DNA of 64,000 bases, taken from contig CAZPGS010000001.1 in the NCBI GenBank assembly GCA_964586135.1, positions 18,761 through 82,760 of the forward strand, read 5' to 3'. Under the pieces are notes generated by a model. It saw only the letters and a program-made list of their open reading frames with translations, searched no databases and was not told where the DNA came from. The stretch comes from an uncultured Nitrososphaerota archaeon. Its GTDB lineage: Archaea > Thermoproteota > Methanomethylicia > Nezhaarchaeales > WYZ-LMO8. Of this stretch, positions 1,045 to 52,168 are shown piece after piece. The number at the start of each line of letters is the position of its first letter. Position 1 is the stretch's first letter. A program made the translations under genes and the position numbers.

Positions 1045-2034
1045 TTAACGCGCTGTAGACGATGTTTCGCGAAGCACCCTGTACACCTCTTCAGCTATTA
1101 TCAATGCAGCCGTCACCTGAGCTTCCCACGTCTGAGAAGCTATGTGAGGCGTCACGACTACGTTTGGTAGCCTTATGAGCTCCCATTCTTCTTCGGTTTT
1201 TGGAGGCTCATTCTCGAAGACGTCTAATGCTGCCCCTGCCAGTTTGCCCTTCTTCAACGCCTTCAAGAGGGCCTTTGTATCTATTATCCCCCCTCTTGAG
1301 GTGTTTACTATCATAGCACCTCTCTTCATGAGGGATATCTCTCTCATGCCTATCATGTGTCGCGTGCTCTCATTCAAAGGTACGTGGAGCGTTATTATGT
1401 CGCTCTCTCTCAAAAGCTCTTCGAGCGTTGCAGCAACCTTAACGCCCATGCTCTCGGCCTCCTCCCTTATGTCCCTTATGTCGTAGGCCATCGCCTTCAT
1501 GTCAAAGGCCAAGGCCCTCTTAGCAACAGCCTTGCCTATTCTACCGAAGCCTATTATGCCTAAGACCTTCCCCCTTAACTCGAGGCCCATGAACTTGCTC
1601 TTCAGCCACAGCCCTTCTTTTAGTGTCTTGTTGGCTTCAGGTATCATCCTAGCTAGCGCCAGAATAAGGGCCATCGTCGTCTCGGCTACCGCGACCGTCG
1701 ATGCTTGAGGTGATGCTATAACCCTTATCCCCTTCTCAGAGGCGGCCTCGAGGTCGACGTTGTCGAGTCCTACGCCAGCCCTCCCTATGACCTTTAGGCT
1801 CTGCGCCTCCATTATCACGTCCCTCGTGAACCTCGTCCTTCCTCTAATTATGATGGCATCGTACTCCTTAACTGCTCTAATCAGCTCGTTCCTCGTCAGC
1901 GAGGACTTAACAGTAACGTGGCAGCCCTTGGATCTGAGGACTTCCGCGCATGATTCATGGACGTCGTCGGTGATAAGCACTTTAAACTCTGCCACGAGTC
2001 CACCACCGTATTGCCGGAACGTCTTATACCTCAA
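1045..2034 (-). CDS. D-isomer-specific 2-hydroxyacid dehydrogenase (D-3-phosphoglycerate dehydrogenase / glyoxylate reductase-like)
   Basis: NAD-binding GIIGFGRIGKAVAKRA motif. Catalytic region ...NTSRGGIID... ALDVFENEP... VTPHIAS is typical of SerA/GyaR-family enzymes. The first Met probably lies upstream of the true start (LVAEFKVLITDD). Confidence 0.75.
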   Translation of the reverse strand: MRYKTFRQYGGGLVAEFKVLITDDVHESCAEVLRSKGCHVTVKSSLTRNELIRAVKEYDAIIIRGRTRFTRDVIMEAQSLKVIGRAGVGLDNVDLEAASEKGIRVIASPQASTVAVAETTMALILALARMIPEANKTLKEGLWLKSKFMGLELRGKVLGIIGFGRIGKAVAKRALAFDMKAMAYDIRDIREEAESMGVKVAATLEELLRESDIITLHVPLNESTRHMIGMREISLMKRGAMIVNTSRGGIIDTKALLKALKKGKLAGAALDVFENEPPKTEEEWELIRLPNVVVTPHIASQTWEAQVTAALIIAEEVYRVLRETSSTAR

Positions 2035-3724: not shown

Positions 3725-6142
3725 TTGGGTGAGAGCATGGAGGAGAAGGCAAAGACGTATGTACTATGGTTCGATGAGATAGACAAGGACGACCTAGCGC
3801 TCGTTGGTGGCAAGAGCGCTAATTTAGGAGAGATGACGAAGGCAGGGATATCAGTGCCACCTGGCTTTGCTGTAACTTCGTACGCATACAAAGAGTTCAT
3901 AGAGAGGACGGGCCTTAAGAGCAAGATAAGCGAGGCGTTGAAGGAGGTCGCGAACAGCAAGGATCCCAAGGCATTTGAAGACGTGAGCACGAAAATTAGG
4001 AGAATCATAGAGGAAGAGGAAATCCCAGAAGACATAGCGAGAGCCATCGTTGAAAACTACAGAAAGCTTTGTGAGAGAGTAGGAAGGGCGAACGCCCCCG
4101 TCGCCGTTAGAAGCTCTGCCACAGCCGAAGACTTGCCCGGGGCCAGCTTCGCTGGTCAGCAAGAAACTTTTCTGAATGTCGAGGGCGAGGAAGAGGTCTT
4201 GCTCAAAGTCAAAAAGTGCTGGTCGTCGCTCTTCACGCCACGGGCCATATTCTATCGCCAGGAGAAGGAGATAGACCACGATAAGGTGCTCATGAGCGTA
4301 GTCGTGCAGAAAATGGTCAACGCAAAGGCAGCAGGCGTGATGTTCACCATCCACCCAGTTACGGGAGAGGAGGACAAGATAGTGATAGAGGGAGGCTGGG
4401 GCCTAGGAGAGGCAGTCGTCAGCGGCTCCATAACTCCGGACACTTACGTCGTCGACAAAAGGACCCTCAAGATATTGGAGAAGAAAATAGCTGTGAAAAC
4501 TTACGAAGTCGTCAGAGACCCCTCTTCAGGACGGACCATAAAGGTCGAGGTTCCTCCCGAGAGGAGGAGTGCGCCCTGCCTGACCGATGAAGAAGTCGTA
4601 AAGCTGGCAGAGTTGGCCCTCAAGATAGAGCAACACTACAAGCACCCCCAAGACATTGAGTGGGCCATAGATAGGGACATGAAGTTCCCTGAGAACATAT
4701 TCATAGTTCAGTCTAGGCCCGAGACCGTGTGGTCATTGAGGAAGGAGGGGACAAGAGTGCGGCCCAGCGTCGAAGTCAGAGAAAGGAAGGTCGTAGCTAA
4801 GGGTCTGCCAGCTAGCCCAGGCGTGTGGACTGGCAAAGCCAAGGTGGCCAAGGGCCTCGAAGAGGCCTCGAAAATGATAAAGAAGGGCGACATACTGGTA
4901 ACCACAATGACCAACCCCGACTGGGTCCCGTACATGAGGCTTGCAGGTGCCATAGTGACCGATGAAGGCGGCATGACGTGCCATGCTGCTATAGTTAGCA
5001 GGGAGCTAGGGATCCCAGCTATAGTCGGTACGGGCAACGCAACCAAGGTCATGAAGAGCGAAGAGGAGTACACAGTTGACGCTACAACTGGCGTGGTCTA
5101 CGAGGGCATCGTTGGAGAACTGACAAAGAGGGAGGTCGAGGAAGTCACTAAGCAACAAATGATGCCAGTTACGGAACACTTCATACCCACGGGGACTAAG
5201 ATCTACATGAATTTAGGGGTTCCTGAGAAGATAGCAGAGTACGTCAACTTACCATTTGACGGGATAGGGTTGATGCGCATCGAGTTCATATTGTCGTCCT
5301 ACATAGGAGAACACCCGCTCTACTTACTGGAGATAGGTGAAGAGGATAAGTTCGTGGACAAACTTGCTGAGGGCATAGCGATGGTGGCTAGGCAGGTTCA
5401 GCCAAGGCCGGTCGTCGTCAGGCTTAGCGACCTCAAGTCGAACGAGTACAGAAAGCTGAAGGGCGGCGAGAAATATGAGCCCGAGGAACGCAATCCGATG
5501 CTCGGCTATCGTGGGGTCTCTCGCTACATAAGCCCGCAGTACGAGAAGGCGTTCAGGTTGGAGTGTAAGGCAATCAAGAAGGTCAGGGATGAGTGGGGCC
5601 TCAAGAACGTGTGGGTGATGCTACCATTCGTGAGAACTACTTGGGAAGCGGAGAGGGTCTTGCAGATCATGAAGGAGGAGGGGCTTGAGAGGGGAAGGGA
5701 CTTCAAATTATGGGCGATGGCAGAGGTCCCAAGCGTTATATTCATGGCCGACGAGTTCTGCAAGTACGTTGATGGCTTTAGCATAGGCAGTAACGATTTG
5801 ACTCAACTGGTACTCGGCGTTGACCGCGACTCGGAAATCATGTCGAAGCTAGACGCACGCTACTTCGACGAAAGAGAGCCAGCAGTGTTGAGAGCCATAG
5901 CTCACTTAATTAGGGTCGCGCACAAGCATGGAGTAACCGTAAGCATATGCGGTCAAGGGCCTTCGTACTTGGAGGACTTCGTGGAGTGGCTAGTGCGCCA
6001 AGGCGTAGATAGCATATCGGTTAACCCTGATGCGGTCGTCAGGGTGCGCCGCCTCGTCGCGCAGATTGAAAGGAGGATCATCCTTGAAAGAATGCTCAAA
6101 GGAGTAAAGAGGAGCACGAGAGGAACTCCTTCGCTCAGGTAA
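3725..6142 (+). CDS. ppsA: Phosphoenolpyruvate synthase (PEP synthase, pyruvate,water dikinase)
   Basis: 805 aa. N-terminal ATP-grasp GGKSANLGEM; phosphohistidine domain GGMTCHAAIVSRELGIPAIVGT; C-terminal PEP-utilising TIM barrel with ...CGQGPS.... Confidence 0.85.
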   Translation: MGESMEEKAKTYVLWFDEIDKDDLALVGGKSANLGEMTKAGISVPPGFAVTSYAYKEFIERTGLKSKISEALKEVANSKDPKAFEDVSTKIRRIIEEEEIPEDIARAIVENYRKLCERVGRANAPVAVRSSATAEDLPGASFAGQQETFLNVEGEEEVLLKVKKCWSSLFTPRAIFYRQEKEIDHDKVLMSVVVQKMVNAKAAGVMFTIHPVTGEEDKIVIEGGWGLGEAVVSGSITPDTYVVDKRTLKILEKKIAVKTYEVVRDPSSGRTIKVEVPPERRSAPCLTDEEVVKLAELALKIEQHYKHPQDIEWAIDRDMKFPENIFIVQSRPETVWSLRKEGTRVRPSVEVRERKVVAKGLPASPGVWTGKAKVAKGLEEASKMIKKGDILVTTMTNPDWVPYMRLAGAIVTDEGGMTCHAAIVSRELGIPAIVGTGNATKVMKSEEEYTVDATTGVVYEGIVGELTKREVEEVTKQQMMPVTEHFIPTGTKIYMNLGVPEKIAEYVNLPFDGIGLMRIEFILSSYIGEHPLYLLEIGEEDKFVDKLAEGIAMVARQVQPRPVVVRLSDLKSNEYRKLKGGEKYEPEERNPMLGYRGVSRYISPQYEKAFRLECKAIKKVRDEWGLKNVWVMLPFVRTTWEAERVLQIMKEEGLERGRDFKLWAMAEVPSVIFMADEFCKYVDGFSIGSNDLTQLVLGVDRDSEIMSKLDARYFDEREPAVLRAIAHLIRVAHKHGVTVSICGQGPSYLEDFVEWLVRQGVDSISVNPDAVVRVRRLVAQIERRIILERMLKGVKRSTRGTPSLR

Positions 6143-9248: not shown

Positions 9249-9841
9249 GGTCCTATGGCCTTTTCTTTAGGGACAGGTGGTACAGTAAATAAATAGTACC
9301 TCTCGTTGCCCTTTAACTCTGTTAAGATCCTCTCAATTATGATACCAACTATGTTGTTGACCCCTGTTCTCTTCTCAAAATCTTCGTAACTGACGAAGGG
9401 GGCCTTCTCCCTCTCCTTTATTATCACCCACATAGTTTTCTTCCCTATCCTAGGCAAGAGCTCGAGGGAGTGCATCTTGGTGGTAAGAGGTGGGGCGCTG
9501 TTCAAAAACTGTACAAACCTGTTCTCGTGCTCCCTCACTATCCTCTCTATCAGTCGAGGCAATTCGTCTTTAGCAAAAGTCGTCAACTCTTCAAAGCTCA
9601 ACCTCCTCGTTATCCTATCTATTTTTTCTCTAAAGCCCTTTCCTATGAAGATCCTCTCTCCGGGGGTTAGGGAGACGTTAGGCTTCGGTACCAATTCCAG
9701 CAGCATGAAGAAGTCTTCGCCAATGGCTTGCGCTATCGGCTTGCCCATGAAATGAGGGCGAGTCTCCCTCATGTATCCTCGAGGAAGGAAATCCAGCGCA
9801 TATGCATATTCTTCAAATTTCTTCTTATCTTTAGCCCACAA
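9245..9841 (-). CDS. DUF655-family protein (predicted nucleotide/RNA-binding, conserved partner of KsgA in archaea)
   Basis: YALDFLPRGY N-terminal motif and size typical of DUF655. Its 4-nt overlap with ksgA matches the known archaeal operon. Confidence 0.6.
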   Translation of the reverse strand: MWAKDKKKFEEYAYALDFLPRGYMRETRPHFMGKPIAQAIGEDFFMLLELVPKPNVSLTPGERIFIGKGFREKIDRITRRLSFEELTTFAKDELPRLIERIVREHENRFVQFLNSAPPLTTKMHSLELLPRIGKKTMWVIIKEREKAPFVSYEDFEKRTGVNNIVGIIIERILTELKGNERYYLFTVPPVPKEKAIGP

Positions 9842-27263: not shown

Positions 27264-27348
27264 GCCGGGATGGCCGAGCGGACCAAGGCGCCAGCCTTGA
27301 GAGCTGGTGCCCCATTGGGGCGCGCGGGTTCGAATCCCGCTCCCGGCG
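27264..27348 (+). tRNA. tRNA-Ser (anticodon UGA), type II with long variable arm
   Basis: Acceptor GCCGGGA/TCCCGGC. D arm GCC-GAGCGGACCAA-GGC. Anticodon stem CCAGC/GCTGG with loop CTTGAGA (UGA). Variable arm TGCCCCATTGGGGCGC. T arm GCGGG-TTCGAAT-CCCGC. Discriminator G. No intron, CCA not encoded. Coordinates are ±1 nt. Confidence 0.8.
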
Positions 27349-34174: not shown

Positions 34175-34370
34175 GGATATAGGGAAAATGTCTAAAGAAG
34201 AGAGGCTTGCCAAACTCAGAGAACTAAAAGCAGAGCTCCTGAGGCTTAGGACCCAACAGGCTTCAGGGGCTCCGCTCGAAAACCCCGGCAGAGTGAGGAT
34301 TATAAAAAAGACCATAGCCAGGATCTTGACGGTCATAAATGAAGAGAAGAAGGGTTCTAAACGTGCCTGA
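34155..34370 (+). CDS. rpl29: 50S ribosomal protein L29 (uL29)
   Basis: ...MSKEERLAKLRELKAELLRLRTQQASGAPLENPGRVRIIKKTIARILTV... 71 aa, overlaps the rps3 end. Confidence 0.85.
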   Translation: MAILKVKDIGKMSKEERLAKLRELKAELLRLRTQQASGAPLENPGRVRIIKKTIARILTVINEEKKGSKRA

Positions 34371-35475
34371 ACCTGTCCTTAAGCTTCACCAATATCTTGG
34401 GTAATGTCGTGTACTCTAGTTCTTCAGGTCCGACCCTAGCCGGCATGAACTCTCCCATCCTCCTCATGTAGTCAGCTATCTGCATCGCGATAGTCCTTGC
34501 CACGTCAAAGGCCGGGTCATCGAATAGGTCGGCGGGCTCAGAGCCCGTAAGGCCTATTAACTCGCCGTTTGTCAGCTGGAAGCCAAGAGCTACGACTCGA
34601 GGCGGGCCGTCGAAGAAAGTGCAACGCGCATGCTTCAGACTTACTGGCATCAATGGACCATAGTGCGAGCCCCTCATCCAACCTGCCACGAGGTGGGGGT
34701 ACGCGAAAGGCGCTAGTATTTCACCGACGGCTGGAAAGCCGTGCTGGGCCCTGATTATTAAGGCGGGGTCATCCTTGCCGACGTACTTGCCAGCTATTAA
34801 GCTGAGCCTCGTCGTGGTGGCCACGGCAGCAATCTCTCTATCCACTTTTCTCAGAACCTTCTCGACGACGTACCTCCCCGTCGTGCCCAAGAGCGCCACT
34901 AAGCTGTAAAGCTCTTCAGGGCAACTGAGGTCGACAACCTTTCCCTCTACGACGTCCATGACCCTAAATATGAAGCCTTCGTGCATGCTGGGATCTATTA
35001 CTAAACCAGCGGTGTTATCTGGTGACGCGAAGATCTTGTAAAGGGGGTAGTTCCAAGCTCCGGGCTCAGTCTTATCGGCTGCGAACACTACTATTGGCTC
35101 GCTGAGCCTCTCGGTTATCTCCATCTCGGCAACTCCAGGGCCCATCCCCTTCACATTGCCTGAGAAGGTGTCTGAGAGGAGGTCCTGTCCGGCCGCGTAG
35201 AGCTTTAGAGGTTTTGAAACCTTCTCTGTGACCTCCTTGAATGTGTTCCAAGCTAAGCCATGGATCTCCGGGTCGCCTTCTCCCTTAGTGTGGGTCATCA
35301 ACAATTCCAAGTCGTCGCCACAATTGAAGACGTAGTAGTCCATAATGATTCCATTTTTCTTGGCCTCTTCAAGCCGTTTGCGGGCCACTTCTAGTTGTTT
35401 GGGATGGACGACGTGGTGTCCGCAAAGAGAGCCCACATCGGCTTTTATCAAGCTAATGGTGACTTTTTGCGGCAC
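34357..35475 (-). CDS. fbp: Bifunctional fructose-1,6-bisphosphate aldolase/phosphatase (class V FBPase)
   Basis: MPQKVTISLIKADVGSLCGHHVVHP... N-terminus and overall 372-aa architecture are characteristic of archaeal FBPA/P. Confidence 0.9.
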   Translation of the reverse strand: MPQKVTISLIKADVGSLCGHHVVHPKQLEVARKRLEEAKKNGIIMDYYVFNCGDDLELLMTHTKGEGDPEIHGLAWNTFKEVTEKVSKPLKLYAAGQDLLSDTFSGNVKGMGPGVAEMEITERLSEPIVVFAADKTEPGAWNYPLYKIFASPDNTAGLVIDPSMHEGFIFRVMDVVEGKVVDLSCPEELYSLVALLGTTGRYVVEKVLRKVDREIAAVATTTRLSLIAGKYVGKDDPALIIRAQHGFPAVGEILAPFAYPHLVAGWMRGSHYGPLMPVSLKHARCTFFDGPPRVVALGFQLTNGELIGLTGSEPADLFDDPAFDVARTIAMQIADYMRRMGEFMPARVGPEELEYTTLPKILVKLKDRFRHV

Positions 35476-35539: not shown

Positions 35540-37363
35540 TCATGGTCCCTCCTTTTCCTCTGCCTCCTCCCTCTCAGGTATGTAATAGTACTCTCCTATG
35601 CTCTTCTGCTTCCTGTGGAGATAGGAGTCCGGCTTGTTTATCCTAACCCTCCCGCTGTGAAGGTCTCTCCTAAAGGTCACGTCGACTTCTCTCAAGAAGG
35701 CGTTGAAGCCACTCCTCAAGTCCATGGGGCTCGAAGCAACACCGTAGACTCCGGGCTTACCGCTAAAGACCATTATCGAATCAGCGACGGCGTCCATTAC
35801 GACGAGGTCATGCTCAACGACGAAGGCCGCGGCCTTCCTCTCGTCGACGATCTTCCTGACGAGCTTTGCCATCATCAAGCGTTGTTCTACGTCTAAGTAA
35901 GCCGAGGGCTCGTCTAACAGGTAAATGTCCGCCTCTCTGGCCAATGCACACGCTATGCTAACTCGTTGGAGTTCTCCGCCGCTTAGGGATGATAGCTTAC
36001 GATCGAAGAGGTGTTCGAGCATGAACGGCTGGCATATCTCGCTCTTGAACCAAGAAGAAGATAACACGCTCCCTAAATTCCTCGACAAGTAGTCGTATAC
36101 AACTTCGTCGCTCTCAGGTGTCAAGTATTGTGGTTTGTAACTCAGCCTTATCTCGCTCTTTCCTTCCTTCGATATGCCCTCCAAGAGGGACCTCACGAAC
36201 GTAGTCTTGCCGATTCCATTAGGACCCAGTATACCGATAACCTCCCCCTCGTGCACGACCCCTTGATTTACGGTGAGCTCGAAGACCCCTCCCACTTCGA
36301 CTTTGAAGGAGGGCCACGAGAAGAGCTCGTTGACGGCAAGTGATTCCCTAGGCCTAGGTCTTAGCCTGAATTTTACGGGCTCGCTCCTGAATCTCACGTT
36401 CTCGCCGGGTATGTAGCCATCGAGGTATATGTTTATGCCCACTCGGACCCCGTATGGCTGAGAGGCTATGCCATAGGCCCCTGGCTTGCCGTACATGATG
36501 CACACCTTGTCCGAGGCGTAGTCTAGTATCGCAAGGTCATGCTCGGCCACGACGACGGCCTTTCCCTCTTGCGAGAGTGACCTTATGACCTTTGAGACTC
36601 TGAGCCTCTGCATTACGTCGAGATAGCTTGCCGGTTCGTCAAATATGTAGACGTCGGCTTCTCGGCTACACGCGGCTATTATGGCCAACCTCTGCAACTC
36701 CCCGCCGCACAGGGCTGAGACCTCTCTATCAGCTATGTCAATTAAGTCGAGCTCCTTCGCTAAATCCCTCCACGAGCCCTTCTCATCAACTTTAGTGAGG
36801 AGGTCTTTGACGGTGCCCTTAACATATCTAGATATTAGGTCAACATGTTGTATTTTATGTACAATGCGTAATTTCCCGGAATACAAATCTCGAAAGTATG
36901 GCTGAAGCTCGGTGCCTGCAAAAAAGCGCACTACGTCGTCCCTCGTTAGTCGAAGCTCTATGTTTCCGAGGTTCGGCACGAGGTCGCCAGCTAAAATGCG
37001 AAGTATCGTGGTCTTTCCCGTGCCGTTGGGGCCTATCAAACCTAAGACTTGGCCTCTTCTAGGCGGGGGGAGCCTGTATAGCCTAAAGCCATTGGCTCCG
37101 TACTGATGAACACACTCACGCCCTATCTCCTCTGGCAAGTTGACTATAGTTATAGCCGAGAATGGGCATTTCTTGACGCAAATACCGCACCCTACACAAA
37201 GGTTCTCCTTTATCATCGGCCTTTGAGATTCCTCGCTCATCTCGATGGCCATCACTTTATTTTTGACCAGTGGGCAGAAGCGGAGGCACTCCTTGTAACA
37301 CTCTTTCGGTTTACAGAGGTCTTTGTCTATGACGGCTATTCGGGGCATGGTATTCCCCTCCAT
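35540..37363 (-). CDS. abcE1: ABCE1 / RNase L inhibitor homologue (ribosome-recycling ATPase)
   Basis: N-terminal 2x[4Fe-4S] domain (CKPKECYKECLRFCP..., CVGCGICVKKCP). Two ABC cassettes (GLIGPNGTGKTT, GILGPNGIGKTT; LSGGELQR x2). 607 aa. Confidence 0.9.
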   Translation of the reverse strand: MEGNTMPRIAVIDKDLCKPKECYKECLRFCPLVKNKVMAIEMSEESQRPMIKENLCVGCGICVKKCPFSAITIVNLPEEIGRECVHQYGANGFRLYRLPPPRRGQVLGLIGPNGTGKTTILRILAGDLVPNLGNIELRLTRDDVVRFFAGTELQPYFRDLYSGKLRIVHKIQHVDLISRYVKGTVKDLLTKVDEKGSWRDLAKELDLIDIADREVSALCGGELQRLAIIAACSREADVYIFDEPASYLDVMQRLRVSKVIRSLSQEGKAVVVAEHDLAILDYASDKVCIMYGKPGAYGIASQPYGVRVGINIYLDGYIPGENVRFRSEPVKFRLRPRPRESLAVNELFSWPSFKVEVGGVFELTVNQGVVHEGEVIGILGPNGIGKTTFVRSLLEGISKEGKSEIRLSYKPQYLTPESDEVVYDYLSRNLGSVLSSSWFKSEICQPFMLEHLFDRKLSSLSGGELQRVSIACALAREADIYLLDEPSAYLDVEQRLMMAKLVRKIVDERKAAAFVVEHDLVVMDAVADSIMVFSGKPGVYGVASSPMDLRSGFNAFLREVDVTFRRDLHSGRVRINKPDSYLHRKQKSIGEYYYIPEREEAEEKEGP

Positions 37364-37565
37364 CGGACTTCAGAATCGTTTTAGCAAAATTGAGCTACAC
37401 GACGACTCAATAAATCATTCACCTACTTCATGGTCGCCTACAATACGTTTGCTTTTACAGACCTCTTCATCTTATTATCATAATTAACAAAGCGTTTCCC
37501 GATAACTAAGCAAATCGGGGGTCGCGTGTCGTCAGGGTTCAAGACTTAAATCAAAAATGAATGGG

Positions 37566-37640
37566 GGTCATCACCACTCCTCTTCCCATTCCTCCTCTTC
37601 CCATTCCTCCTCCTCTTCCCATTCCTCCCATTCTTCCTCC
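37566..37640 (+). repeat. Polypyrimidine microsatellite-like tract (imperfect CATTCCTCCTCTTCC units) encoding H/S-rich low complexity at the 5' end of the THUMP ORF
   Basis: Plus strand reads catcaccactcctcttcccattcctcctcttcccattcctcctcctcttcccattcctcccattcttcctccatttcc, almost purely C/T. In the ORF frame it translates to HHHSSSHSSSSHSSSSSHSSHSSS. Confidence 0.6.
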
Positions 37641-37760
37641 ATTTCCACGCCCCCTGAAGCGCTTTCTGAAGAGTTATGGCTTTATTTAAAGTTACCGATC
37701 AAATTCTTTAGGGAAGCTTTTAAAGGTCTTCCTTATAAAACACACACGAAGGTGTCGTCG

Positions 37761-38282
37761 GTGAAGTTCAACTTGTTAGTGTCGACGTATCGAAATAGGG
37801 AGGACGACTGTATCAGTGAGCTGTGGTACCTCTTTCGAGAGCTAGGCGACGACCAAGTAGAGGTGCGTAGGGCTCTAGTCCCCGGCCTCTTATTGGTGAA
37901 GACTAAGCTGGACGCCTACGAGGCCTCTAAGAAAATAGGAGAGATAGCTAAGGAAAGGCCGTGGGACGTTAGGTATACGCTTAAGCTCACCCCGATAGAT
38001 GCTGTCACAAGCGATGATATTGAGGAGATAAAGAGGGTTGCCGTCTCGTTTGCCAATAAGAAGATAAGCGAGGGCGAGACTTATCGAATAACCGTAAATA
38101 AGAGGGTCTCCGGTATAAGTAGCCGAAGGCTTATAGAAGAGATAGCCGAAGAAGTCAATAGAAAGGTCAACCTGAAAAATCCTGATAAAATTCTGCAAAT
38201 AGAGATCATCGGCAAAGACGTGGGGATAGCAATATTGAGGCCAGAAGACATAGTTTCTATAGTGAAGATAACTACCTCCTAA
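37761..38282 (+). CDS. Stand-alone THUMP-domain RNA-binding protein (COG1818-like)
   Basis: From the in-frame GTG at 37761 the product (V/M)KFNLLVSTYRNREDDCISELWYLFRELGDD... (173 aa) matches the size and N-terminal FNLLVTT motif of archaeal THUMP-only proteins. The track ORF starts at ATG 37557 with the His/Ser-rich extension and has no internal Met, so the true start is ambiguous. Confidence 0.55.
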   Translation: MKFNLLVSTYRNREDDCISELWYLFRELGDDQVEVRRALVPGLLLVKTKLDAYEASKKIGEIAKERPWDVRYTLKLTPIDAVTSDDIEEIKRVAVSFANKKISEGETYRITVNKRVSGISSRRLIEEIAEEVNRKVNLKNPDKILQIEIIGKDVGIAILRPEDIVSIVKITTS

Positions 38283-39214
38283 GTATTCAATAGGGACGTC
38301 CTCGTCAAAACGCTCTTCAGCTCAGGGCTTAAGGCCGAGGATTTATAGCTAGTCGTGCGTAGCTCTTCGTCGCTTATACGGAGGATTTTAAGTAAGGGCC
38401 TTGCTTCGCATGGTCGAGAGAAGTCGAGCTGCTCTACCTCCTTTATGAAGGGGGTAGAGAACAGGAGCTTAAGCCTCTCGTCGGAGGTCCCTCTACTTAG
38501 TGACAATATGTAAAGGTAAAACTCCCTAGCTCTATCGCCCATCCCTGCGATTTCTAGCGCGCAGACTATTTGATTCTCGCAGGCAAGACGCAAGAGGAAC
38601 TCTATGTTGAATTTGTTGCTTATGTTCTTCCCCAAGGCGAAGGCCTTAATCGTATGATAGAAGACAAAAAATACATGAAGCGGCGATAGAGCTAGTCCAG
38701 GTCGTGACGCTGCCCACACGACGTCGGTACCCTCAAAAGTTCTCTCAAGCAGTCGAATAACTTCTCGTGATGGCAACTCCTCTTTCAACCTTATGTGCAA
38801 TACCCTTAAATCCATTTCACCCCCTTTTTCACTCATCATAAGGGTTAGCAACTTTTTTGCTTTGTCCGCTGTGGCCGAGGTCGTAGACCCCCCGTGAACT
38901 GAAGGTATTAGCGTGATCTCGTTAATGTTGTCCGCTGAAGAATATAAGCCGCCCATTAAATTTACGTCAACGCCATCAACTAAGACTATTATGTCGCTCC
39001 TAATCTTTTCTCCGCTAGACTCAAAGACCCTCTTGAAGAGGATTTCATTGTCTTTACACGCTAAATAAATCACATCTCTTATACTTAGCCCTTGACGAAC
39101 CTCGACCTCGACAGAGCTCGTCTTAGCCAAACCCCTAAGAACGGCTAAGAAGTTCACTTTAACCTTCACGCTAGCGAGCCTCCTATTGAGGTCGGTTGAG
39201 GTACATTTTTTCAC
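38279..39214 (-). CDS. MoaD/ThiS/SAMP-like beta-grasp domain (ends ...IPSVHGG at ~aa 97) fused to an uncharacterised ~210-aa C-terminal domain
   Basis: Residues ~15-97 (VKVKVNFLAVLRGLAKTSSVEVEV...IRSDIIVLVDGVDVNLMGGLYSSADNINEITLIPSVHGG) align position by position with MoaD/SAMP (…VLVNG…GDE..L.PPVSGG). The remaining 210 aa have no recognisable motif (no P-loop, no JAMM HxH, no E1 Rossmann). Confidence 0.5.
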   Translation of the reverse strand: MKKCTSTDLNRRLASVKVKVNFLAVLRGLAKTSSVEVEVRQGLSIRDVIYLACKDNEILFKRVFESSGEKIRSDIIVLVDGVDVNLMGGLYSSADNINEITLIPSVHGGSTTSATADKAKKLLTLMMSEKGGEMDLRVLHIRLKEELPSREVIRLLERTFEGTDVVWAASRPGLALSPLHVFFVFYHTIKAFALGKNISNKFNIEFLLRLACENQIVCALEIAGMGDRAREFYLYILSLSRGTSDERLKLLFSTPFIKEVEQLDFSRPCEARPLLKILRISDEELRTTSYKSSALSPELKSVLTRTSLLNT

Positions 39215-39293
39215 CCCTCAGAGTAGGTCAGCCTCGTCATCCCTCGCTCCTAAGAGAGACGACAAATGTATTTAAACGTTAAAGAGAGGTTAT

Positions 39294-40502
39294 GTGCAGG
39301 AAGCTATGACGGCACTTACTGGCAACAGTAATCCTGTGTGGCTAAAAAAGGAGCTACTTAAGGCAGTCCAAGAAAGGTTGAAAGATGAGGAGCTTAAGGT
39401 GGCAAAGAACGATTGGCACTCGAGGCGAAAGCCTATAGGTTGCGGCCTGACGATACATCCGGGCATCGGCTGTCCAATGCAATGCAGTTACTGCTACATC
39501 TACGACATGGGCTTTAGTAAGCACGTCACCCCCTACTCTCTTAGCGGGCTTCAGCTCGTAACCGCCCTCCTCTTCAACAAGTACTTCTACCCAACTAGGT
39601 GGGGTACCTACTTAGCATTTGGTAGCGTAACAGAGCCCTTTCTTCCAAGCGTATTGCCAAAGACTCTTGAGTACCTAAAGGCTATAAGAGAGTACTTGGG
39701 CAATCCTTGCCAAGTCTCAACCAAAATGGTCATAAATGATGAAAGCATCGATGAACTTGCAAGAGCCAGTAACTCTAAGCTCTCGATCTTGGTTACGGTG
39801 ACGACTCTGAGCCAGTATGTGGACTTAGAAAGGAGAGCTCCACATCCCTTTAAGAGGTTAGAGCTCGTAGGTAGGCTCAGGAGCAAAGGGTTTAAGCCAT
39901 TCATTTTCATGAGGCCCCTATTGCCAGGTTTAAAAGTTGAAGAAATAGACGAGATCGTAGAGCAAGCGAAAGCTTCAGGAGCTTATGGCGTGGTCGTCGG
40001 AAACTTGAGGTTGTCATCAAGTATAATAAGAAGGTTGATGAGTGAGGGCGTTGATGTTGTCCGGTACTTAAAGGTCGACCCCGACAAGTTGCAAAGCACG
40101 TTTGTCAACGTGAGGGTTAACCACTTTGTGCAATCCCTCATTAAGGAGAGGGCTTTGAACAAAGGGCTCATATTCTTAAAGAGAGCATGTTGCGCCAACA
40201 CTGTTTCGCAACTACTTAGCGGATACAATGATGTCATATGCCCTTCTCTATGCTTTTTAAACGAAGACTCATGTGAAAAATCTTGTCCCTCTCGATGTAG
40301 GGCAAAAGCGAGAGGCGAGCCCAAGCATCTCAACTTCAACGAATTAATAAGAGAGGTTCTCGGATCTGACGACTACGAAATGGAAGTGGAGGACTACACG
40401 GTGTACATCAAGCTGAAGAAGCCTTTGAGGTATGAAGGGGTAGCGGGCTTCGCGCTATCGTACTTATTCCGTAGAAGAGTTCGCTTTGTGAGGCGTTTTT
40501 AG
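39294..40502 (+). CDS. Radical SAM protein, SplB-like (COG1533 'DNA repair photolyase' family), with C-terminal Cys-rich extension
   Basis: CPMQCSYCY (CxxxCxxC variant typical of COG1533). 402 aa. Extra C-terminal cluster CPSLCFLNEDSCEKSCPSRC. Confidence 0.65.
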   Translation: MQEAMTALTGNSNPVWLKKELLKAVQERLKDEELKVAKNDWHSRRKPIGCGLTIHPGIGCPMQCSYCYIYDMGFSKHVTPYSLSGLQLVTALLFNKYFYPTRWGTYLAFGSVTEPFLPSVLPKTLEYLKAIREYLGNPCQVSTKMVINDESIDELARASNSKLSILVTVTTLSQYVDLERRAPHPFKRLELVGRLRSKGFKPFIFMRPLLPGLKVEEIDEIVEQAKASGAYGVVVGNLRLSSSIIRRLMSEGVDVVRYLKVDPDKLQSTFVNVRVNHFVQSLIKERALNKGLIFLKRACCANTVSQLLSGYNDVICPSLCFLNEDSCEKSCPSRCRAKARGEPKHLNFNELIREVLGSDDYEMEVEDYTVYIKLKKPLRYEGVAGFALSYLFRRRVRFVRRF

Positions 40503-40718
40503 GTCTTGGCTTTGTGCGACCGCTCCGGGGGCCTTGTACCGCTTAGCGAGCCTGGTCAAATATCCGCTCACTCTGTTCAGCAAGTGCTTGGCCCTGATCG
40601 TGGATACTTCCAAGACCAGTTTTTTGTTCTGCCTGTAATCCAGGCTCACTTTGTCGTAGTACTGTTGGAATATCTGACGAGCTAGCCTTTTAACGGATGC
40701 AGGCCTAACCTTGCCCAT
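40464..40718 (-). CDS. rps17e: 30S ribosomal protein S17e
   Basis: MGKVRPASVKRLARQIFQQYYDKVSLDYRQNKKLVLEVSTIRAKHLLNRVSGYLTRL is the S17e signature. The 3' end of the ORF as drawn overlaps the radical SAM gene end. Confidence 0.85.
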   Translation of the reverse strand: MGKVRPASVKRLARQIFQQYYDKVSLDYRQNKKLVLEVSTIRAKHLLNRVSGYLTRLAKRYKAPGAVAQSQDLKTPHKANSSTE

Positions 40719-41171: not shown

Positions 41172-42845
41172 ATGTTAGGTGATGATGCCATGGCCGCTGT
41201 TAGCGGAATTCCCGTCCTAATATTGAAAGAGGGCGCAACAAGGACTCATGGTAGAGAAGCTCAAAGGGCTAACATAGCCGCTGCAAGAGCAGTAGCCGAG
41301 ACGCTAAAGACGACCTTGGGTCCACGAGGCATGGACAAAATGCTTGTGGACAGCCTAGGAGACGTCACCATAACAAATGATGGCGCGACGATACTCGACG
41401 AAATGGATGTTCAGCACGCCGCGGCCAAGATGCTCGTGGAGATAGCCAAGGCCCAAGACGAGGAAGTCGGCGACGGAACAACTACCGTTGTAGTCTTGGC
41501 GGGCGAGTTACTGAAGAAAGCAGAAGAGCTCATGGTCAAGAACATCCACCCGACTGTCATAATAGACGGCTACGGCAAAGCGCTTGAGTTCTGCCAAAAA
41601 GAGCTTGAGAAGCTAAGCTTGCCCGTCGGCCTCCAAAATGAAGACCTCTTGAAATTGATAGCCCAGACGTCGATGCACGCTAAGGTGGTGAGCGCCGCGA
41701 GGGATTACTTGGCGGAGCTGGCCGTCAAGGCCGTTAAGCAGATAATTGAGGAGAGGGACGGCAAGCTTGTTGCTGACGTCGACCAGGTGCAATTAATTAA
41801 GAAACAAGGCGGCAGCGTCATGGACACTAAGCTGGTTCAAGGAATTATAGTAGACAAGGAGGTCGTTCACACTGGCATGCCAAAGCGCATAGAGAACGCG
41901 AAGATCGCGCTCCTTGATTGTCCATTAGAGGTGGAGAAGACCGAGATCGATGCAGAAATAAGGATAAGCGACCCCGCTCAAATGAAGGCCTTCATAGAGG
42001 AAGAGGAGAAGATGTTAAAGGGGATGGTAGAGAAGATTAGGAGCATCGGCGCAAACGTCGTGTTTTGCCAGAAGGGCATTGATGACGTAGCTCAGCACTA
42101 CCTAGCCAAAGCCGGAATTTTAGCAGCTCGAAGAGTGAAGAAGTCAGACATGGAAAAACTAGCTCGAGCCACTGGCGCTAGGATCGTCACCAACATCGAG
42201 GACTTAACGCCAAACGACCTAGGATATGCCGAGCTCGTCGAAGAGAGGAAGATAGCCGACGAGAAGTTAATATTCGTTGAGAACTGCAAGAACCCGAGGT
42301 CCGTGGCCATACTGATAAGGGGAGGGCTGGAGAAGTTTGTAGAAGAGGCCGAGAGAGCGCTAAAGGACGCTCTGAGCTCAGTCGCTAGGGCAATCGAATG
42401 GGGGCGCTACGTACCCGGCGGCGGAGCCATCGAGGTAGAGCTGGCTAAGAGGTTGCGCGAGTACGCGGCTAAGGTGGGAGGAAAAGAGCAACTAGCAATA
42501 GAGGCCTTTGCCAGCGCTCTAGAGGCGATACCGAGAACGCTAGCGGAGAACGGAGGGCACGATCCGATAGACGTGATGATGGCCTTACGCGCAGAGCATG
42601 AAAAGGAAGGCAACTACTACGTGGGTGTGGACGTTTACACAGGAAAACCCGTCGACATGCTTAAGATGGGCGTCATAGAGCCTCTAGCAGTTAAGGCGAC
42701 TGCTCTGAAGGCTGCTACCGAAGCAGCTGCCATGATATTGCGCATAGACGATGTAATAGCAGCTGCTAGGAGCGAGGCAACGAAGGAGAAAGGAGGAGTA
42801 GGGACTAAAGAGAAGGAGGAGGGCGAAGAGAAGGAGAAAGACTAA
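41172..42845 (+). CDS. ths: Thermosome subunit (group II chaperonin, CCT/TCP-1 family)
   Basis: ...[27 protein letters not shown]... [15 protein letters not shown]... and a C-terminal GGM-like/charged tail. 557 aa. Confidence 0.95.
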
Positions 42846-52094: not shown

Positions 52095-52168
52095 TGGGCC
52101 GGCCCGGACTCGAACCGGGGACCTCCCGCGTGTGAGGCGGGCGTTCTAACCAGCTGAACTACCGGCCC
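52095..52168 (-). tRNA. tRNA-Val (anticodon CAC)
   Basis: Reverse complement GGGCCGGTAGTTCAGCTGGTTAGAACGCCCGCCTCACACGCGGGAGGTCCCCGGTTCGAGTCCGGGCCGGCCCA. Acceptor GGGCCGG/CCGGCCC. Anticodon loop CTCACAC (CAC). T loop TTCGAGT. 74 nt, no intron. Confidence 0.8.

Follow-up and report, generated by a model that had tools for sequence, protein, structure and literature searches.

The locus examined here raises the question of why a ubiquitin-like (Ubl) carrier protein should continue well past the Gly-Gly (GG) with which such carriers end. It lies in a window of 64,000 nucleotides from an uncultured Nitrososphaerota archaeon (contig CAZPGS010000001.1, positions 18,761 to 82,760), whose nearest species-representative genomes are metagenome-assembled genomes (MAGs) labelled Nitrososphaerota and Methanomethylicota, followed by Nezhaarchaeota MAGs. 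On the minus strand of this window, a single open reading frame (ORF) was found to encode a Ubl domain whose GG is not C-terminal, with 202 residues beyond it. An earlier note on this DNA regarded the extension as an unknown domain of ~210 amino acids (aa), and joined the gene with its two neighbours, which encode a THUMP-domain protein and a radical S-adenosylmethionine (SAM) protein, into one module; all three ORFs were found again where it had placed them. Our analysis indicates that the ORF almost certainly consists of a Urm1/SAMP-type Ubl ending in HGG and of cgi121, which are neighbouring genes of an old Thermoproteota array and are here read in one frame. The best explanation overall, and one that we consider somewhat probable, is that two array genes have been joined and that their product is processed after the GG. 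The parts of the fused gene are as follows.

38279..39214, minus strand: fused Ubl-Cgi121 ORF, 311 codons from GTG 39214; the likely start at GTG 39169 gives 296 aa.
38888..39169, minus strand: Urm1/SAMP1/MoaD-type beta-grasp Ubl domain, residues 16-109, ending ...LIPSVHGG.
38888..38893, minus strand: Gly-Gly codons, within CAC-GGGGGG-TCT.
38864..38887, minus strand: Ser/Thr-rich variable linker STTSATAD, residues 110-117, which in the alignment matches the N-terminus of free-standing Cgi121 in relatives.
38282..38863, minus strand: Cgi121 (KEOPS subunit) domain, residues 118-311.

The true start of the fused gene is likely to be GTG 39169, for a product of 296 aa; this codon is preceded by AGGAGG at 7 nt, and the relatives P0003, P0006, P0008, and P0009 start at the same position. 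The N-terminal part had been described as a MoaD/SAMP/Urm1-type Ubl with an internal GG (...IPSVHGG), and family models, profile comparison, and structure prediction were found to agree on this assignment. Pfam Urm1 matched residues 16-109 at 25.3 bits (cutoff 21.8, E 2e-5), and the NCBIfam models SAMP1 (E 1e-10), moaD_arch, and Urm1_like matched as well; since all of the NCBIfam matches fall under the equivalog cutoffs, the assignment is to the Urm1/SAMP1/MoaD group as a whole. A plain sequence search of the fused protein against the PDB returned weak Ubl matches only, and profiles were needed. The profile built from the window domain and 22 relatives matched P. furiosus MoaD, Ta0895, SAMP1 homologues, yeast and mouse Urm1, and 4wwm, with E-values of 2e-18 to 5e-7. 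Entry 4wwm, which is deposited as 'Uncharacterized protein' and which we take to be Sulfolobus Urm1, was matched at E 5e-7, and archaeal MoaD/SAMP1 structures scored higher. Most of these alignments reach the last residue of the free carrier, which identifies the internal GG as the homologue of the C-terminal GG of carriers. The earlier note would have withdrawn its assignment had this region failed to model as a beta-grasp; the AlphaFold2 model of the domain is a confident beta-grasp (predicted local distance difference test, pLDDT, of 78-94 at residues 13-80), and Foldseek placed it with SAMP1, Urm1, and MoaD at target-normalised template modelling (TM) scores of 0.65-0.90 (0.8-0.9 for SAMP1 and Urm1) and a probability of 1.0. 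The GG is terminal in the relatives L009, L010, L014, and L029-L034, and the motif [LF]xPxxHGG is unchanged in fused and unfused relatives, with 0, 1, 4, 5, 13, or 158-202 residues after it. Elsewhere in the window, the ORF at 9470..9670 (plus strand), which ends in ...SGG, was rejected, as it is antisense to a real gene.

The extension is not an unknown domain but Cgi121. The NCBIfam model NF011465, "KEOPS complex subunit Cgi121", matched residues 177-291 at 47 bits (cutoff 40); Pfam CGI-121 is recorded for the relatives P0008, P0012, and P0019-P0023, and unfused relatives are named Cgi121 by NCBI. The profile and structure searches of residues 100-311 that had been suggested for this region both returned the Cgi121/TPRKB family. 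When the C-terminal half was compared by Foldseek, human TPRKB and yeast Cgi121 were retrieved (probability 0.96-0.99, TM ~0.45-0.53), with the model being of low confidence at 197-224 and 267-274. When a profile of 25 relatives was compared with the PDB, the best matches all belonged to the Cgi121/TPRKB family, with M. jannaschii Cgi121 first (E 0.004, a weak similarity). Cgi121 is the subunit of KEOPS that binds the 3′ CCA end of tRNA, KEOPS being the complex that makes t6A37, and the residues of M. jannaschii Cgi121 that contact the CCA are K56, M60, Q71, I72, and G80 (PMC7718258). In the profile alignment, Q71, I72, and G80 correspond to the identical residues Q215, I216, and G224, with no variation among the 25 sequences; M60 corresponds to I204 and K56 to N200, with the invariant K201 adjoining. 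The link to tRNA modification that had been suggested for the locus does exist, but it runs through the KEOPS subunit Cgi121 and not through the THUMP or the radical SAM protein.

An internal GG followed by an in-frame extension may also be produced by an error of sequencing or assembly, with the real gene stopping soon after the GG, and the six-G run of the window (CAC GGGGGG TCT) is the kind of site at which this might occur, as the run is of five G in split relatives (L001, L038, and L039). We consider this explanation, against which the earlier note had warned, to be extremely improbable. The in-frame fusion was detected in nine distinct 90%-identity clusters drawn from JGI, ENA, and Logan assemblies and on four independent contigs (the window, L004, L005, and L006). 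The diglycine codons are GGAGGG in L004 and L006 and GGGGGA in L005, with no long G run, and hence the fusion frame is independent of homopolymer length. In addition, the linker residues are conserved in frame, and one assembly, ERZ27245638, contains one fused and one split contig. The fusion is thus real. Compared with the window (38885..38896, CAC-GGGGGG-TCT), the split lineages have CAC-GGGGG-TCG, one G fewer, at L001 5985..6000 and at L038/L039 ~1484..1500, and a -1 shift at their G run would restore the fused frame. The difference between five and six G may be the outcome of repeated indels in a homopolymer prone to mutation. Production of some fused protein from the split forms, through -1 slippage of the ribosome at this run, is much less likely; their site, CAC GGG GGU, differs from the canonical slippery heptamers, and we give this possibility a low probability.

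Beyond the close relatives, a search of 1.8 billion representative proteins returned ten further diverged Ubl-Cgi121 fusions, all with the Ubl first and an internal xHGG. One diverged fused cluster is labelled Sulfolobales/Desulfurococcaceae and carries the IMG annotation "Cgi121 subunit/molybdopterin converting factor", and the AT-rich fused representatives P0194, P0196, and P0198 likewise begin with the Ubl and carry the HGG internally. The Ubl was found directly upstream of Cgi121 at every related locus, and the junctions between the two form a natural series, which we regard as the most useful new point of this analysis.

L009: GGT GGC TAG c ATG, 0 residues after HGG.
L010: GG-TGA with ATG 4 nt further, 0 residues after HGG.
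L008: stop/start overlap, 4 residues after HGG.
L007: stop/start overlap, 5 residues after HGG.
L001-3, L038, and L039: separate ORFs in different frames, 13 residues after HGG.
Window and L004-6: in-frame fusion, 202 residues after HGG.

At more diverged loci from the metagenome scan, the HGG is followed by a stop, a 1-residue tail, or a fusion. The split relatives are tightly packed, with the Ubl stop and the Cgi121 start 1-4 nt apart or overlapping, and in the window lineage the stop after the GG has been lost, by which Cgi121 has become a C-terminal extension of the Ubl. Because the close relatives are unfused, the fusion of the window lineage is probably independent and recent. On a neighbour-joining distance tree of the Cgi121 part, calculated without support values, the fused and split states are interleaved, such that at least 4 state changes are needed. 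The Ubl is the better conserved of the two parts, with identities of 74% for the Ubl versus 66% for Cgi121 among the fused forms and 58% versus 47% among the split forms.

Two observations on a different partner of the Ubl were made along the way. P0152 (291 aa) has a Ubl ending in ...VHGG fused to a phosphoribosyltransferase domain, and in L017 (labelled Methanomethylicota) a free phosphoribosyltransferase gene, 5137..5769 (minus strand), lies directly upstream of Cgi121 in the place of the Ubl.

How the fused product functions can be approached from this series. Two hypotheses are live, and they are those of the earlier note: processing at the GG and a built-in domain. We propose that the fused product is a precursor. 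A Ubl-specific protease, of the JAMM/MPN+ or another type, would cut after Gly109; the freed Ubl, now ending in HGG-COOH, would be activated by an E1-like enzyme to modify proteins (urmylation) and possibly to pass on sulfur, and the freed, normal Cgi121 would join Bud32-Kae1-Pcc1. The fusion would in this way ensure a 1:1 output, as in eukaryotic ubiquitin-ribosomal-protein fusions and JAMM-cut MoaD-MoaE, with the radical SAM and THUMP genes being outside the unit and neighbours in some lineages only. Since the GG presumably must be exposed for activation, forms with tails of 1-13 residues, or with a whole Cgi121, would need a protease that acts after the GG. Consistent with processing, the HGG is invariant, while the sequence after the GG is unconserved and is modelled as flexible (pLDDT <50 at residues 106-111); the HGG is also kept in the ten diverged fusions of other lineages, and the better conservation of the Ubl relative to Cgi121 points in the same direction. 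Cleavage after the GG, taken by itself, we judge to be close to an even call.

Several points weigh against this proposal. The Cgi121 part of the AlphaFold2 model is of moderate confidence (pLDDT 40-90). None of the JAMM (HxH...S..D), E1-type GxGGxG, and PP-loop motifs was detected in window ORFs of at least 80-90 codons across the 64 kb, and our search found no demonstration of cleavage for any member of the Ubl-Cgi121 fusions. Jab proteases are missing in many crenarchaea (PMC2948915). The fusion is kept in all Thaumarchaeota (PMC2948915), which could mean that the physical linkage itself is useful, and the HGG could be kept for another purpose, such as docking to an E1-like partner.

If the Ubl is not cleaved, it would stay on Cgi121 as a permanent, built-in module of KEOPS, which could dock the complex to an E1-like enzyme, a sulfurtransferase, the proteasome, or the ribosome, or could regulate the CCA-binding surface in cis. 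We regard this as possible, though rather unlikely. In at least 10 diverged fused clusters the Ubl again precedes Cgi121, and a fusion of the two is reported from all Thaumarchaeota (PMC2948915). The interleaved states on the unsupported neighbour-joining tree imply several independent fusions within one clade, which would suggest that the linkage is tolerated or favoured; the absence of a protease gene nearby in the motif scan of the window points the same way. However, old fusions, too, keep the HGG unchanged while the positions following it drift, and the short linker is predicted to be flexible. Furthermore, close relatives manage with two separate proteins or with short tails, so the covalent link is not required. 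Processing of a joined product after the GG is for these reasons the reading that we prefer.

Having considered the fused gene itself, we turn to the genes around it, which bear on whether the THUMP and radical SAM genes belong to the same system.

34357..35475, minus strand: fructose-bisphosphate (FBP) aldolase/phosphatase, after ABCE1.
35540..37363, minus strand: ABCE1/RLI, downstream flank of the conserved array.
37761..38282, plus strand: stand-alone THUMP-domain protein, Tan1-like, 173 aa, recognised by Pfam THUMP, with a probable start.
39294..40502, plus strand: radical SAM protein, divergent from the fused gene, its 3′ end overlapping S17e.
40464..40718, minus strand: ribosomal protein eS17 (S17e), first gene of the S17e-Ubl-Cgi121 operon in several other lineages.
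41172..42845, plus strand: thermosome subunit, divergent flank of the conserved array.

The surrounding genes are archaeal housekeeping genes, namely FBP aldolase/phosphatase and ABCE1 on one side and eS17, a histone, the thermosome subunit, and an adenylate-kinase-like NTPase on the other. The sole Rfam/ARAGORN matches in the window, tRNA-Ser(TGA) at 27264..27348 (plus strand) and tRNA-Val(CAC) at 52095..52168 (minus strand), are both far from the locus. A conserved array was identified in L019-L034 (loci of Desulfurococcaceae/Sulfolobales type and other metagenome loci), in which a thermosome gene on the minus strand diverges from S17e, and S17e is followed by Ubl-Cgi121, ABCE1, and FBP aldolase/phosphatase. 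These loci are without the radical SAM gene and have no room for a THUMP gene, with S17e directly adjoining the Ubl. For Sulfolobales and Thaumarchaeota, PMC2948915 describes neighbourhoods that match this array.

The earlier note grouped the Ubl fusion with the THUMP and radical SAM proteins in one RNA-modification or sulfur-transfer module. There are observations in favour of such a module. The order in which the radical SAM gene diverges from Ubl/Cgi121 and the THUMP gene converges on it is kept in all nine close relatives (L001-L009), which span 42-77% Cgi121 identity to the window; beyond these, the THUMP gene converges on Cgi121 in L017 (labelled Methanomethylicota) and L015/16 (labelled Thermoproteota, with one contig YNP-named), and a radical SAM homologue lies beside S17e, a histone, and a free Ubl in L014, a MAG labelled Methanomethylicia. 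THUMP and Cgi121 both recognise the acceptor/CCA end of tRNA, and the radical SAM protein has additional conserved Cys residues and a fold near that of lipoyl synthase, a sulfur inserter. However, the same nine relatives retain the whole block of NTPase, thermosome, histone, S17e, radical SAM, Ubl/Cgi121, THUMP, ABCE1, and FBP aldolase/phosphatase, and because this nine-gene block includes unrelated housekeeping genes, the linkage of the three genes is no stronger than general synteny. The array of L019-L034 keeps S17e-Ubl-Cgi121 without either gene, the radical SAM homologues of Ignicoccus and Pyrobaculum are in other genomic contexts, and the THUMP homologue of L018 has no recognisable Cgi121 adjoining. 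Moreover, the three genes cannot share one transcript, as they lie on alternating strands. By these comparisons the triad is not a conserved module, and a shared function of the three genes seems to us quite improbable. The expected conservation of the neighbourhood was borne out within the nine relatives, but outside them it extends only to the THUMP/Cgi121 pairing (L017 and L015/16) and to the radical SAM, S17e, and Ubl cluster of L014. The position of the radical SAM gene between S17e and the Ubl was seen in the relatives of the window and L014 only, and the operon is broken there. From these gene orders, the firm unit is S17e-Ubl-Cgi121, with the THUMP/Cgi121 convergence being a weaker, partly conserved pairing.

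Four candidates for additional linkage were rejected during the neighbourhood comparison: (i) a 154-aa gene that converges on THUMP in L018 has no similarity to Cgi121 (hhalign probability 0.2%); (ii) a 275-aa gene beside the radical SAM homologue of L014, considered as Cgi121 or THUMP, is a SerK/ParB-like protein; (iii) a 267-aa gene beside the radical SAM homologue of L012, considered likewise, had no family match; and (iv) a Ubl of Pyrobaculum, encoded 3 kb away from a radical SAM homologue, is a MoaD of the ordinary archaeal kind (88 bits).

The two neighbouring proteins were also examined in their own right. By sequence search against the PDB, nothing useful was returned for either of them. 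The THUMP protein scored 38.1 bits against Pfam THUMP (cutoff 20.6), and its homologues are ~173 aa in length, some of them named tRNA acetyltransferase TAN1 by IMG. It stands alone and is convergent with the fused gene, as had been described, but its start is not at 37557; the gene most likely starts at GTG 37761 and encodes 173 aa. The first 68 codons of the longer ORF (37557..) are His/Ser-rich, lie antisense to a conserved minus-strand micro-ORF, and are interrupted by stops and frame changes in relatives. The 4-nt convergent overlap of the fused ORF and the THUMP gene was found as reported (38279..38282), with the THUMP stop TAA at 38280-38282 and the fused-ORF stop TAG at 38279-38281 on the minus strand. 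On the other side, the divergence from the radical SAM gene is as reported, while the spacer, given as 80 nt, measures 79 nt between the longest ORFs (39215..39293) and ~125-136 nt with the likelier starts.

The radical SAM protein scored 49.6 bits against Pfam PF04055 (cutoff 29.5), with an invariant CxxxCxxC formed by C60, C64, and C67. Further Cys residues are conserved, as C50, C299, and C327 are invariant and C331 is present in at least 90% of sequences, which supports the extra C-terminal Cys cluster proposed earlier. The description of this protein as SplB-like did not hold, as it is not an SplB orthologue: no match to an SplB model was obtained in the NCBIfam scan, the best match in that scan, to the PA0069 family, reached 52 bits against a cutoff of 360, and the protein lies far under every NCBIfam cutoff. 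Its AlphaFold2 model (pLDDT 91) has as nearest folds lipoyl synthase, spore photoproduct lyase, and HydE, with modest TM scores, and the spore photoproduct lyase structures (TM 0.47-0.57) are no better than lipoyl synthase or HydE. Members of the family were detected across Thermoproteota, including Ignicoccus, Stetteria, Pyrobaculum, Thermoproteus, Acidilobaceae, and Methanomethylicia, and no characterised relative was found. In a Pyrobaculum MAG (L013 4460..6056), an ASCH-domain gene lies upstream of the radical SAM homologue with an overlap of 17 nt, and the homologue is followed by NurA and a HerA-like ATPase gene. In the window, the 3′ ends of the radical SAM ORF (plus strand) and the S17e ORF (minus strand) overlap by 39 nt as called (40464..40502); since S17e is shorter (72 aa) in relatives, the true overlap may be smaller.

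A further feature of this region is the small ORF opposite the discarded N-terminus of the THUMP ORF.

37571..37642, minus strand: Glu/Trp-rich micro-ORF of 23 codons, peptide MEEEWEEWEEEEEWEEEEWEEEW, upstream of ABCE1 on the same strand.

It is the antisense reading of this micro-ORF that accounts for the spurious His/Ser-rich N-terminus. The micro-ORF comes with a TATA-like box of its own; its ATG is preceded by a run of GGGGG, and its stop is followed by a run of T5. In 23 related loci, a comparable Glu-rich micro-ORF with periodic Trp/Phe/Leu closely precedes ABCE1 and shares its strand, the gap to the ABCE1 ORF being ~40-440 nt; apart from L017, it was present at every locus whose ABCE1-upstream sequence was examined. 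Its positions in relatives include L001 7228..7296, L015 3469..3546 (minus strand), L022 3128..3217, L023 5812..5898, and L030 2144..2245, among others. In the AT-rich lineage the peptide is MEEEFEELEEFEELEELEELEEFEE, specified by different codons, with Trp replaced by Phe or Leu. Conservation is at the peptide level, and indels occur in multiples of 3. The micro-ORF is not annotated, and exact look-up and searches of NCBIfam, the PDB, and the literature gave no match. Its product could act on its own as an acidic microprotein, or the element could serve as a leader or attenuator for ABCE1, the factor that splits ribosomes. Immediately upstream of ABCE1, a small Zn-ribbon protein (CxxC...CxxC) with an acidic/aromatic C-terminal tail is encoded in L015 (3176..3403, minus strand) and L017 (1708..1968, minus strand). 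The L015 gene lies between the micro-ORF and ABCE1, and the window is without a counterpart.

Returning to the fused gene, the fused, tailed, and free forms found in close relatives make the cleavage question directly testable. If the product is cleaved, Ubl precursor processing would occur in archaea that have a Urm1-type modifier only, and there would be a handle on why Urm1 genes adjoin translation genes (eS17, Cgi121, ABCE1, and the thermosome gene); if it is not, KEOPS in these lineages would bear a built-in Ubl domain. More tentatively, a ubiquitin-style precursor-processing protease may exist, and Urm1-Cgi121 may be the archaeal counterpart of the ubiquitin-ribosomal-protein fusions, coupling a modifier and sulfur carrier (urmylation, possibly s2U34) 1:1 to a KEOPS subunit (t6A37); this broader proposal is possible but doubtful. 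Slippage by -1 in the split forms would be a still more speculative variant of it.

The closest known system is the Ubl-Cgi121 fusion that Makarova and Koonin (2010) reported in all Thaumarchaeota, co-transcribed with S17e (PMC2948915). This type of fusion has been known since 2010, and the window is a further example of a known architecture. The two are alike in the single ORF for Ubl and Cgi121 and in the linkage to S17e, an arrangement that was read there as coupling Ubl pathways to tRNA modification (PMC2948915). They differ in that the window lineage is related to Nezhaarchaeota/Methanomethylicia and has the radical SAM gene inserted between S17e and the Ubl, with S17e lying 1.25 kb upstream on the same strand. 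Our literature search found no experimental characterisation of a Ubl-Cgi121 fusion, and the KEOPS papers checked were silent on it.

With regard to the individual domains, the free-standing Urm1 of crenarchaea has a terminal HGG and is attached to numerous proteins, among which the thermosomes are the most heavily modified (PMC4569737; PMC12625751), and the neighbourhood of the Sulfolobales Urm1 contains S17e, a divergent thermosome gene, and a HerA-like ATPase (PMC2948915). The Ubl of the window resembles the Urm1 of Saci_0669 and S. islandicus (PMC4569737; PMC12625751) in its beta-grasp, its HGG, and the adjoining S17e and divergent thermosome gene, whereas Sulfolobus Urm1 is free-standing with a C-terminal GG, and conjugation has been shown experimentally in Sulfolobales only. 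The C-terminal domain resembles Cgi121/TPRKB, as represented by M. jannaschii MJ0187 (PMC7718258), in family profile and in the CCA-contact residues Q71, I72, and G80, and its predicted fold is matched to that of the family at modest TM scores; unlike MJ0187, it carries an N-terminal Ubl extension, and its similarity to solved structures is weak.

In layout, the fused protein is like the MoaD-MoaE and SAMP1-MoaE fusions, in which a carrier with an internal GG likewise stands upstream of its partner. A report links HvJAMM1 with SAMP1-MoaE fusions (PMC4443979), DRJAMM is described as cutting MoaD-MoaE (PMC8832034), and according to these sources a cut after the GG frees both parts. The partner in the window is a tRNA-modification subunit, in contrast with MoaE, which is the carrier's own synthase. 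In the eukaryotic Ub-eL40 and Ub-eS31, an N-terminal Ubl is fused to a translation component and is freed by a cut after the GG. The protein of the window is like these in its Ubl-first layout and its linkage to a ribosomal protein gene, with a KEOPS subunit as the partner, and the likeness is one of analogy, with no homology implied.

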